Shown here: piece by piece, positions 27,316 through 59,218 of the stretch
Position numbering within the stretch: the stretch's first letter is position 1
How the letters are laid out: every line of letters starts with the position of its first letter
Assembly: GCF_006345805.1 (NCBI RefSeq)
Contig: NC_043006.1
Coordinates: 73,470,001 to 73,534,000 of the forward strand
From: Octopus sinensis
Taxonomy: Eukaryota
DNA: 64,000 nt
Direction: 5' to 3'
Made by a program: the position numbers and the translations under genes
The notes under the pieces: generated by a model
Database searches by the model: none
What the model was told of the DNA's origin: nothing
What the model saw: only the letters and a program-made list of their open reading frames with translations

Positions 27316-27391
27316 ATAGGCACACACACAGACATAGACACACACACACATATAGGCGCAGGAGTGGCTATGTGGTAAGAAGCTTGCTTCC

Positions 27392-28595
27392 GGTTGTTAG
27401 TTGTTCTTCACTCGCCTGTTGAAGTCGCCACGCTGGTTTGCAGCTGGCGAAAATTGAACTGAAGTCACCACGCTGGTGAATTAAAAGACGCTCTACTGTA
27501 AGGTAAGACTTTCTGCTTCTGGAGTCCAGTAGGATTTGTTGCTTGTAGGTTTTATTTTTTGTACTAGCAAGGAGTCCTTACTGGATTCGGAGCTTTTTGA
27601 CTGTCTTGCAGTGGAGACGTATGTGTTTTCTCACATAATTGTTAGAAATTATTTTTCACCTGTGGATTATTGGCCAGGAGTACCTTTTCAGCCGAAAATT
27701 GTTTTCTTTGCCTGGATTTGAACTCTCTTCTTCAAAGCTTTCATTTATTAAAAAAAAAAAAAGAACTTTTATTGAACTGTTATTTTTATTTTGTTTCTTC
27801 CCTTCTGTTGTGTCTTCTTTCTTCTTTTTTTTGTATCTTCCTCATTTTTGAATCTATCGTGAACTTTGTTTGAACTTTTTATACATGGCAAAGAAGAATG
27901 AAGCCACTGCCTTGGAGTGGGAGGTTGTCCCGCCCAAGCAGTGGATCAAAGACCTTGAAAAGAGGACGGTGGTGCTACGAACCTATTCTAGGTCGCGTGG
28001 TGCCATCGCCCTCTTCGACAAGAGCACAATAGAAAGAGAGTTGGCAGACTACCTGCCAACTATAAATTTATTTCTCGGGGGAGCAAATTTGCAACGGTGT
28101 GGTTGCTGTTTGGTACCCCCAAGGAAGCTAGCAGATTTGCTAGCGAGCCCCTTGAGGGAGATGAAATTTTGTTCTTCTCCACGTATTGTGGAAGAAAGAT
28201 AAGGAGAGCCTGGGTGTGCGGGCTGCTCGTTCTGCTCAAGTTGTCCGATACGGCCTCCGCTGGTAGCTGCGGAGGCAGTTAGTGAGGAAATTTTGTCAAA
28301 GGTCACAGCGACCTTTGACAAGAAAGAATTTGCTTTCCTCTTTGCAGGCCCCGACCCGTCGATGCAGAGTTGTCTGCAGGCGGCAGGTAACTTACTTTGG
28401 GAGACCTGACAAAGAGAATTGTAAGAAAATTTTTGATATCGTTGTAAAGAAACTTTGTATTCGAGGGTTTGTCGGTCGGTGGGCGCCAACATCCCTCCCA
28501 TTCGCATTATTTCGTTCCATTTCGTCTCATCCTGTCTATGTCCAGCCCACTTGCTTCTATCTATGTACTGCCCTCGTGGCAAATTTTATAAAATA
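27392..28595 (+). mobile_element. Internally deleted Tx1-like LINE derivative 1, inserted in a SINE A head
   Basis: Follows aagaagcttgcttcc (27377-27391). Has a 250-bp leader, a frameshifted ORF1-like fragment (MAKKNE...RTVVLRTYS...ISRGSKFATV) and the tail ccctcgtggcaaat...aataaagaa. Confidence 0.6.
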
Positions 28596-28610
28596 AAGAA
28601 GCTTGTTTCC

Positions 28611-29387
28611 GGTTCCGGTCGTTAGTTGTTCTTCACTCGCCTGTTGAAGTCGCCACGCTGGTTTGCAGCTGGCGAAAATTGAATTGAAGTCACCACGCTG
28701 GTGAATTAAAAGACGCTCTACTGTCGGGTAAGACTTTCTGCTTCTGGAGTCCAGTAGGATTTGTTGCTTGTAGGTTTTATTTTTTGTACTAGCAAGGAGT
28801 CCTTACTGGATTCGGAGCTTTTTGGCTGTCTTGCAGTGGAGACGTATGTGTTTTCTCACATAACGCTGCCGGCGTGTCCCAATCCTCCTGAGGCGGGTGT
28901 GCCAATGGAGGATGAATTTGTGGTCCTCTTCCACAAAGGAGGAACCATAGAAAACGAAGTTTAAAATATGGAAAGGAGGGGCCGATGGGAGGGACTTCAG
29001 TCCTGCACGGAGAATCCTGAGTGGCTTTCGCAGGTGGCTGAGGAGGTCCTATGGGATAGTGATCATGAATCCTACAGATTTATGTCTGTGTGGTCCGGCC
29101 TGGAACCGAGTACATGCTTCAATGAAGCAAGGAGACTGGTCGGCCGGATAACCTGAACGAGTCTAGAAAATGTGAAACATGTGACTTTTTGTGTGTTTTA
29201 AAAAAGAAAAAAGAAATCTGAACACTGTTGTTTAAGTAAGAGGTTTATTGCCTCATTGTATTTTGGGGGAAAAAGGAAAAAAAGAACATTGTTTTAGAGA
29301 AGCGAAAGTCGGCGGGCGCTTTTCGTCTTCTCCCAACCCGCAAAGCTTCAATCTGTGTAATGCCCTTGTGGCAAATTATATGAAATA
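28611..29387 (+). mobile_element. Internally deleted Tx1-like LINE derivative 2, in tandem at the same site
   Basis: Same 250-bp leader (28617-28863), a different internal part and a related tail; bounded by aagaagcttgtttcc (28596-28610) and aagaagcttgcttcc (29388-29402). Confidence 0.6.
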
Positions 29388-29740
29388 AAGAAGCTTGCTT
29401 CCCAACCACATGCTTCCAGGTTCAGTCCTACTGCGTGGCATCTTGGGCAAGTGCCTTCTACTAAAGCCTCGGGCCGACCAAAGCCATTGAGTGGATTTGG
29501 TAGACGGAAACTGAAAGAAGCCCGTCACACATACACAAATGTCATTTGTGACTGTGTTTGTCTCCCGACAATCACTCGTTCGTGTGTTTACGTCCCCGTC
29601 AGCTAGCGGTTCGGCAAAAGATACCGATAGAATAAGTGCTATGCTTACAAAGAGTAATTCCTGTCAATTTGTTCGACTAAAGGTGGTGCTCCAGCATTGC
29701 CGCAGTCAAATTACTGAAACTAGTGAAAGAATAAAAGAAT
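29388..29740 (+). mobile_element. Remainder of the interrupted SINE A (its 5' part is at about 27355-27391)
   Basis: caaccacatg...ggttcagtcctactgcgtggca resumes where the head at 27361-27391 stops. Confidence 0.8.
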
Positions 29741-57058: not shown

Positions 57059-58348
57059 TATCAGACTTTTCTGTAGTCTCAATACTAGTGTTGTTATTGT
57101 TTTGTGTGTATGTGTGTGTATATATATACATAAGTATATATATATATACATACATACACACATATACATACATATATGTGTTGTACATATCTATATACAT
57201 ATATATATTGTACTAAGTGATGATCATATTTTGTATATCTATATAAATACACACAAAACAATAACAACACTAGTATGAAAAGTATATAAATGTCTGATAG
57301 TTATTTTTATTATTATTATTATTGTTATTATCATTATTGTTGTTGTTGTTGTTATCATCATCATAAATGTTAAATCTCCATCGTTATTTCTTCTTGGAAG
57401 CAGAAGACAAGTTGTCTCTGTGTTGTTCAAGTTGTTGAAAGTAATGAAGCAATAAGGAAAAAAAAAAGAAAAAAGAAAACGTGTTTGACTGGAAAATATA
57501 TTTATGGAAAAATGGTGTCTTTGTGATCGATATTCTAATCAGCCATTCATTGAAAGTGAGTTGGAAGTTAGTCAATTCCCAAATTCCTGTTTTCTTTTTA
57601 AGAGTGAAGAATAAATATTTCCTATGTTACTTAGGCTTCCTGACTTTCTACGAATGAGTTTAATGATGCACTTAAAATATCAATTGTCTTCTTATTAGAC
57701 TTTCATTCCAGTTTACCGCTGTTAACGGAAAATACTTATTCAGTTCTATTATGTAAAGAAGACTTAAGAGAGGAGCTGCGTCTACAAGTTGCATGATTGA
57801 ATTTTGATTTTCAGTTGAACAGTAAGGTGTAATCAGCAAATAAAACAGACTATAGTTGTTAGCAGGAGCATATCCAGACGTCTGAATATACCTCTGTAAA
57901 CAACATTGGTTGTTTATTGAAAGCTTTAACAAGACTAGTCAGGTTTCCTTTTCTTCTACCTCTCCTATTTTCATTCTCTTCGTGTGTCATCATTATAGGC
58001 ACCTGCAATCACAGACCTTCATGACTAAATATGAAGATTTAAGATATTTAATGAGAATTTTCCTGTCTTCTGCCAGTCTTGTTACAGGTTTACTCTGCTT
58101 GTCTCCTATCCTAAGCTTACCCTTGAAACACAGAGCTTAATTTCTTAGGCTGGAAGAATGCTTCACGTGACTTTAGAAAATGTTAACGCAACGGATAGGC
58201 CAAAACTTGTCCGAATTCTGTATGTCGAAGCTACATGACCATATTTTGCTATTTGAACCTAACCGAAGTTAGCATTTCGCCCAGCGTACTAACGATTCTG
58301 CCAGTTCGCTGCCTTCATAATAATAATGATAATAATAATAATAATAAT

Positions 58349-59218
58349 GGCTGTGTGGTGAGTAGCTTGTTTACAAACCACATGGTTCCGGGTTCAGTCC
58401 CACAGCGTGGCACCTTGGGCAAATGTCTTCTAGTATAGCCTCGGGCCGACCAAAGCCTTGTGAATGGATTTGGTGGACGGAAACTGAAAGAAGCCCGCCG
58501 TATATATGTATATATATATATATGCGTTTGTGTGTCTGTGTTTGTCCCCCTAGCATTGCTTGACAACCGATGCTGGTGTGTTTATGTCCCCGTTACTTAG
58601 CGGTTCGGCAAAAGAGACCAATAGAATAAGTATTGGGCTTACAAAAAAACAAGTCCCGGGGTCGAGTTGCTCGATTAAAGGCGGTGCTCCAGCATGGCCG
58701 CAGTCAAATGACTGAAACAAGTAAAAGAGTAAAATAATAATAATAATAATGAAAATAATAATGAAAATAATAATAATAATAATGGCTGTGTGGTGAGTAG
58801 CTTGTTTACAAACCACATGGTTCCGGGTTCAGTCCCACAGCGTGGCACCTTGGGCAAATGTCTTCTAGTATAGCCTCGGGCCGACCAAAGCCTTGTGAAT
58901 GGATTTGGTGGACGGAAACTGAAAGAAGCCCGCCGTATATATGTATATATATATATATGCGTTTGTGTGTCTGTGTTTGTCCCCCTAGCATTGCTTGACA
59001 ACCGATGCTGGTGTGTTTATGTCCCCGTTACTTAGCGGTTCGGCAAAAGAGACCAATAGAATAAGTATTGGGCTTACAAAAAAACAAGTCCCGGGGTCGA
59101 GTTGCTCGATTAAAGGCGGTGCTCCAGCATGGCCGCAGTCAAATGACTGAAACAAGTAAAAGAGTAAAATAATAATAATAATAATGAAAATAATAATGAA
59201 AATAATAATAATAATAAT
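58349..59218 (+). repeat. Tandem duplication (period 435 bp) of a SINE A plus (ATA)n spacer
   Basis: 58349-58783 and 58784-59218 read as identical, including the spacer variant aatgaaaataataatgaaaat. Confidence 0.9.

Follow-up and report, generated by a model that had tools for sequence, protein, structure and literature searches.

The locus analysed here raises the question of how two different LINE-like units came to lie at one and the same site in the head of a SINE. The window is a stretch of 64,000 nt of the Octopus sinensis genome (contig NC_043006.1, positions 73,470,001 to 73,534,000, forward strand), and coordinates are given as window positions. A 15-mer occurs exactly at 27377 and 29388 and with one mismatch at 28596. 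At up to two mismatches it has 7 matches in the window against 0.03 expected, and the other four mark the heads of other copies of this SINE, of which the window holds many. The leaders of the two units (27388-27638 and 28613-28863) are 98% identical over 251 nt, their tails (28553-28610 and 29345-29402) are 88% identical over 58 nt, and the SINE picks up again at 29403. The three 15-mer copies, the shared leader, the related tail and the resumption of the SINE, all described in the original prediction, were confirmed by the sequence. The features are as follows.

27355 to 27376, + strand: 5' part of the SINE head (A-box region), broken at its last base; same context as upstream of 35 of the 38 leader loci described below
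27377 to 27391, + strand: target copy 1, older A-type SINE variant
27392 to 28595, + strand: Element 1 (1204 bp), ORF1-only, subfamily B, lacking 720 bp of its interior at 28225/28226
27392 to 27638, + strand: shared leader, the first half of the 5' UTR
27885 to 28409, + strand: disrupted ORF1 of Element 1, of which the start and first RRM and, beyond the deletion, the last part of the C-terminal domain are left
28551 to 28558, + strand: tail of Element 1, start of the target repeated in antisense
28569 to 28581, + strand: 3' stem-loop of Element 1 (4-bp stem, 5-nt loop)
28596 to 28610, + strand: target copy 2, with one mismatch
28611 to 29387, + strand: Element 2 (777 bp), ORF1-only, subfamily A, lacking about 1.1 kb (28862/28863), 27 bp (29065) and 51 bp (29333)
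28863 to 29156, + strand: remnant of the C-terminal part of ORF1 in Element 2
29343 to 29349, + strand: tail of Element 2, start of the target repeated in antisense
29361 to 29373, + strand: 3' stem-loop of Element 2
29388 to 29402, + strand: target copy 3, which completes AATAAA with the last five bases of Element 2; without a poly(A) tract
29403 to 29740, + strand: remainder of the SINE (B box, body, 3' end)

The tRNA-like character of the SINE head held in part: A and B boxes are present and the head aligns weakly to tRNA-Lys and tRNA-Thr genes, but no tRNA was called by ARAGORN on the window or by Rfam on one SINE copy. Elsewhere in the window (58316-59185), a 435-bp unit with a whole SINE stands in two head-to-tail copies with three differences, the result either of recent tandem duplication or of faulty assembly. 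The leader contains a 5' splice site close to consensus (27500-27510 and 28725-28735), and a pyrimidine tract lies ahead of the ATG.

The leader was searched in the 2.72-Gb genome, which gave 251 candidates; 40 were scored, and the 38 outside the window were fetched. In 28 of these 38 leader loci the tail follows about 2 kb beyond the leader, and both window interiors are found there on one element. The interiors of the two units do differ, as had been stated, but they are not unrelated, being different remnants of one family of about 2 kb from two subfamilies. By comparison with these copies, both units are identified as singly deleted members of a HAL1-like, ORF1-only family of about 2.0 kb. 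The deletion junction of Element 1 was spanned by one of 15 matches and the main junction of Element 2 by one of 28, in each case the window itself. No other scored copy has either junction, and by this measure the window copies are dead singletons. Short deleted derivatives as an amplified family of their own (bipartite SIDE or Bov-A type) were rejected because, among these matches, each junction is unique to the window. Short 5'+3' derivatives had been proposed as the spreading unit; the spreading unit is instead the 2-kb, protein-coding, ORF1-only element (hereafter the passenger). Element 1 is 94-96% identical to locus L035 from 27869 on and 95-98% identical to locus L037 over 27392-27812, and it may be a mosaic, with the middle of its 5' UTR closest to a subfamily-A copy.

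A protein search with ORF1 gave 107 matches from 104 scored candidates. At 20 of 20 ORF-selected loci, picked mostly for open frames, the ORF is followed by a short 3' UTR, the tail and the target, without ORF2, and one passenger copy has an open ORF1 frame of 397 aa. An RT fragment in locus L039 was tried as the partner's own copy and rejected, as it is a separate insertion behind a microsatellite. The 5' UTR starts are wholly different between subfamilies (L102-L108, L034, L038, L050, L068, L074, L122) and hold motifs that we take to resemble NRF1, ETS and E-box/CRE sites; the differences look like repeated promoter replacement, as in mammalian L1. Contigs from sequencing runs X1, X4, X16 and X17 (four organisms) span the whole length of a young copy, so close relatives are present in more than one labelled organism; these contigs have no poly(A) end or start and are uninformative on expression and RNA ends.

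The passenger ORF1 has about 400 aa, arranged as RRM-RRM-CCHC plus a C-terminal domain. Pfam gave a weak zinc knuckle only, with zf-CCHC just below the cut-off in the passenger but above it in the partner ORF1 described below. An Atlas search led to CCHC and ZCCHC3-like clusters at 0.89-0.93. The AlphaFold model (pLDDT 65, pTM 0.42) shows two RRM-like domains and a knuckle, then a linker that is disordered and a C-terminal domain that is folded, and its best PDB matches were tandem-RRM proteins, at low TM-scores. Protein searches with ORF1 returned one homologue (labelled Octopus sinensis) and one weak plant match. An ORF1 with two RRMs and a CCHC knuckle is a feature of the Tx1 clade; it is seen here in the Pfam matches to the knuckle in passenger and partner and in the tandem-RRM matches of the model. 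Selection was estimated from 190 pairs among 20 ORFs chosen for being open; median dN/dS was 0.27-0.37 across all dS bins (dS up to about 1.6) and about 0.2 in the N-terminal half. Two near-identical pairs had dN/dS of 1.14 and 1.28, as expected of neutral decay. Since dN/dS is about 0.3 across ORF1 pairs, ORF1 is under purifying selection, and the passenger has long depended on it.

Dependence on an autonomous APE-RT partner had been part of the original prediction, and a partner that uses the same site and tail was found. At locus L090 three units are stacked, and the middle one combines ORF1, endonuclease and RT with a tail matching the passenger's; in 19 of 20 loci fetched with the partner ORF1 the tail follows 5.2-5.7 kb on, and then the target start. 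Locus L122 has an ORF1 of 467 aa and an open ORF2 of 1137 codons, in which Pfam placed Exo_endo_phos at 17-233, RVT_1 at 513-758 and zf-RVT at 977-1024. A PDB search with this ORF2 gave human L1 ORF2p as the closest match (E 2.5e-65) and R2 proteins at E 6e-20 or weaker, and the 15 matches listed were only of these kinds; among 120 ORF2 homologues listed, none of which bears the name of a clade, a close RT is labelled Argonauta. An N-terminal APE, an RT and a C-terminal zinc finger in ORF2 are characteristic of the L1 group, and from its domains the partner is classed as a 5.4-kb L1-group element (APE-RT-zinc finger) with the site and tail of the passenger. Its insertion is also sequence-specific, into a multicopy target with a TSD, as in Tx1 elements, and Tx1 is likely its clade. 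Passenger and partner ORF1 are only 20-26% identical, so the passenger is a long-separate lineage and the exact partner assigned to each passenger subfamily is a candidate only. In an older partner group, 19 new loci all have ORF2 remnants, and their 16 readable junctions divide into 10 with the older and 6 with the younger SINE variant. In the first 1.2 kb of the element strand of locus L118, a short unit with an ORF1 38% like the partner's is followed by the tail, without the antisense motif; it is possibly a second, independent ORF1-only lineage.

The host SINE accounts for about 51 kb of 897 kb of fetched sequence (two SINE parts counted). Base 4 is A in its older variant and T in the younger; of 79 intact heads, 19 are of the older kind and 57 of the younger. 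The octopus SINEs OK, OR1 and OR2 were reportedly described by Ohshima and Okada in 1994. Sequence-specific insertion into the SINE head, with regeneration of the target and stacking, was supported throughout. The SINE target stands at the 5' end in 35 of 38 leader loci, and it directly follows the tail in 18 of 20 tail loci, of which 17 were recognised by pattern and 1 by eye (the other 2 are off-target), with a slight bias from five target bases in the tail query. Genome-wide, the exact tail pattern had 835 matches, of which 695 run into the exact first six target bases; the reversed-pattern control had 0. The 3' junction is base-exact and without poly(A). Among the first 80 junctions in genome order, 71 continue into the SINE body, 5 into another element, and 4 are decayed or unclear. 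Stacks were found in 7 of 38 leader loci and in many further loci. Parent tRNA genes had also been suggested as targets, for which a limited test gave no sign: the 15-mer had no match in tRNA genes of 7 amino-acid types in 30 loci, a partial sample. The idea of a SINE that shares the LINE tail and nests in itself found no support for this SINE, which, judged by eye from 45 of 113 SINE ends, has a different stem-loop and a short-repeat tail. A second head within a SINE head was seen in 1 of 171, plus one by eye in L111.

Several single loci were recorded beside these counts. Of the off-target insertions, L069 and L077, one interrupts another repeat with a 12-13-bp duplication and the other a run of GAA. 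In L216 and L228 two target copies enclose no more than about 45 nt of tail, an extreme 5' truncation. Short extra copies of the SINE head start lie beside the element at the insertion site in L110, L111 and L119, and L086 has a 6.6-kb segment with a filled SINE twice in tandem. At G000:C1:114496025-114496108, two tail-target junctions face each other on opposite strands, 27 bases apart. Another common repeat resembles the tail-target junction over about 15 bases (L078, L080, L085, L092, L108, L171).

The 15-bp repeat had been taken as a TSD, and this stands in so far as up to 15-16 bp of local SINE are duplicated; in many full-length copies, however, only part of it is truly duplicated. Of 27 young full-length insertions that stand singly, 14 have target copies that disagree within bases 9-15 and 1 has target copies that disagree within bases 1-8; of 16 older insertions, 6 and 3 do so, respectively. 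Odd 5' target versions recur at separate loci of a subfamily. True duplication extends beyond base 7-13 in L115, L116, L124 and L065, and the start of the donor-borne part cannot be located by base comparison because bases 1-8 vary little among SINE copies. From these differences, the second half of the 5' copy often appears to be donor-derived. The mismatch of target copy 2 is carried by 1 of 33 5' junctions; it is found in the 5' copy of L037, a close relative, and not in its 3' copy, and it may be donor-borne.

The tails were compared in a set of 94, after 18 of 112 rows had been dropped (11 unrelated matches and 7 genuine tails whose stem is mutated). A stem-loop with a 4-bp stem closes every tail, in passenger and partner alike; since the stem served as the filter, counting its conservation would be circular, and what counts is the compensatory pair types alone (6 C-G for U-A, 2 U-A for C-G). 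The 3' UTR holds an antisense copy of the target start, 7-9 nt long, at -35 to -50 in passengers and at -67 to -81 in partners. Of the 94 tails, 63% contain a complement of at least 7 nt, compared with 1.9% of shuffles. The motif matches the target variant in 84 of the 89 junctions scored and, in a further count by lineage, in 38 of 39 tails from partners and 63 of 68 from passengers, in copies that are not independent and amount to at least two switches, one per lineage, or perhaps four or more on weak trees of 200-330 nt. In the genome-order sample of 80 junctions, which partly overlaps the earlier sets, agreement was 69 of 74 scored; of the five exceptions, two are pattern mis-hits by eye and three belong to one subfamily. 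In that subfamily five of five copies, L031 and L044 among them, combine a young-type motif with an old-type target. Old-motif copies stand in young targets in L058, L085 and L086; in the most frequent of the young subfamilies the motif is bulged, and it is absent from a few tails (L061, L118). Folds were predicted for 12 tails with 12 nt of read-through: the motif pairs with the read-through in most and weakly or not at all in L096, L102 and L118. When base 4 was swapped, pairing was weakened in the concordant cases and strengthened in L031. AATAAA is completed only by target bases.

Most probably, the locus is one SINE copy with two stacked, independently deleted ORF1-only copies. They stand at a single base of the SINE head and were likely placed there through target-primed reverse transcription, for which a full-length L1/Tx1-type partner would have supplied endonuclease and RT. 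The following course is proposed from sequence evidence. The partner's APE would nick the bottom strand at a fixed point. An RNA polymerase II transcript would start inside the upstream target copy, at about base 9-10, and end just past an AAUAAA that is formed only by element plus target, and so would have target sequence at both ends. The 3' read-through would anneal to the nicked strand and prime synthesis, and the 5' target piece would anneal to the left arm and close the insertion. The antisense motif would fold back on the read-through and for this reason co-evolve with the target. The regenerated target could then accept the next insertion, which would produce stacks. The likely core of this scheme is an RNA with target sequence at either end whose read-through serves as the primer.

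Targeting could also be the work of protein alone, with the endonuclease reading the site, no RNA read-through, and a tail motif that is a remnant or has a DNA-level or unrelated role. The two off-target insertions, which resemble the target start only loosely, fit such a mechanism, and the available passages of PMC4494074 state endonuclease-determined target choice as the rule for Tx1 elements. It would leave unexplained the co-switching of motif and target in two lineages, the missing poly(A) tract after AATAAA and the donor variants in the 5' target copy, and it is held to be unlikely.

At the other extreme, the element RNA might program its own target. Donor target sequence at both ends and the antisense motif would together form an inherited address, and LINE and ORF1-only parasites would follow the drifting SINE through bases of their RNA, not through the endonuclease. 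This is a speculative proposal and rather unlikely to hold. Its strongest form, in which the motif, as a short guide, would base-pair with the target's top DNA strand and itself decide between SINE variants, appears improbable. Both lineages do show a joint switch of motif and target, UTRs that otherwise differ retain the motif at -35 to -81, and young elements are almost never found in the older variant, though this makes up 19 of 79 intact heads. The steady exception subfamily, with a young motif in old targets in five of five copies, argues against a strict guide, as do the old-motif copies in young targets and those tails that use the site without a motif; age alone accounts for old elements in old SINEs.

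Composite movement, in which SINE and passenger travel as one unit by the SINE's machinery, would suit the tight linkage of element subfamily and SINE subfamily and is very improbable. Truncated copies decide the matter. In 5'-truncated elements the intact SINE head is kept upstream, with duplications of 0 to 15 bp, and a private SINE variant is repeated on both sides in six of them (L071, L075, L078, L081, L087, L088). The elements were therefore inserted into existing SINE copies, and composite movement is refuted for the copies examined. A single LTR-like element with the 250-bp leaders as its repeats, or a local tandem duplication, is hardly credible in spite of the 98% identity of the two leaders, the highest of any pair seen, since other copies have one leader per unit, at the 5' end only, L036 is 97.4% identical to both leaders, and the two 3' halves are from different subfamilies; as an LTR element the reading is refuted, and local gene conversion of the leaders may have occurred.

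Stacked insertion by a target-specific partner, the preferred reading, has relatives among known elements. Crocodilian Tx1-Mar LINEs with SINEU-3, and Xenopus Tx1L in Tx1D, are cases of a LINE or its non-autonomous passengers inside abundant mobile elements, and SINEU-3 has a 16-bp TSD and tandem insertions that sandwich the TSD (PMC4494074, available passages). The octopus system is like Tx1-Mar/SINEU-3 in that the target is another mobile element and stacks are formed, and truncated copies served there too as evidence of independent insertion. It differs in its target, which is the tRNA-like promoter region of a SINE and not a DNA transposon, LTR element, microsatellite or RNA gene as in Tx1-Mar and Tx1L, and in its passenger, which codes for ORF1; an antisense tail motif does not occur in the available passages of PMC4494074.

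ORF1-coding non-autonomous LINEs are represented by HAL1 (half-L1), HeT-A and Ag-Sponge (PMC5786205, PMC5753468, available passages). Like HAL1 as described in the same passages, the passenger consists of 5' UTR, ORF1 and 3' end without ORF2 and needs an autonomous partner; it is likewise a multi-copy ORF1-only unit with its ORF1 under selection. HAL1 is derived from mammalian L1, and site specificity is not described for it in these passages, whereas the octopus element is site-specific with a CCHC-type ORF1. HAL1 proper was rejected as an identification on the ground of this CCHC-type ORF1, which is not derived from mammalian L1 and whose only close homologue is labelled Octopus.

SART1Bm and R1Bm are site-specific elements with an APE; annealing of their RNA to the target is proposed to start reverse transcription, and R1Bm needs downstream target sequence (PMC7265360, available passages). 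Their targets are telomeres and rDNA and their annealing sequence is sense, unlike the antisense motif here. The SIDEs of R1 and R2 are site-specific deleted passengers, and those at the R1 site have 14-bp TSDs (PMC3414825, available passages). The passages seen of PMC7265360 and PMC3414825 describe no internal antisense copy that co-varies with a drifting target, and those of PMC10294476, PMC4758252 and PMC3649969 hold nothing on an octopus SINE-targeting system. The literature searched, which takes in few subscription papers, contained no octopus LINE that targets a SINE head and no co-varying antisense tail; a Repbase entry for the family may already exist.

Set beside these systems, the octopus locus presents parasitism in three tiers, with the SINE as host, the LINE as its parasite and the ORF1-only element as parasite of the LINE, and the genome offers hundreds of dated, natural insertions at one base. 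The change of the target, mirrored in the RNA tail, is a natural series of compensatory mutations that bears on the shares of RNA and endonuclease in targeting; because a copy with open ORF1 and ORF2 exists, this question can be tested in cells, and it is relevant to tools for RNA-templated gene insertion. The system is akin to the known target-specific Tx1-type elements, ordinary in its parts and unusual in their combination and in the covariation of tail and target.
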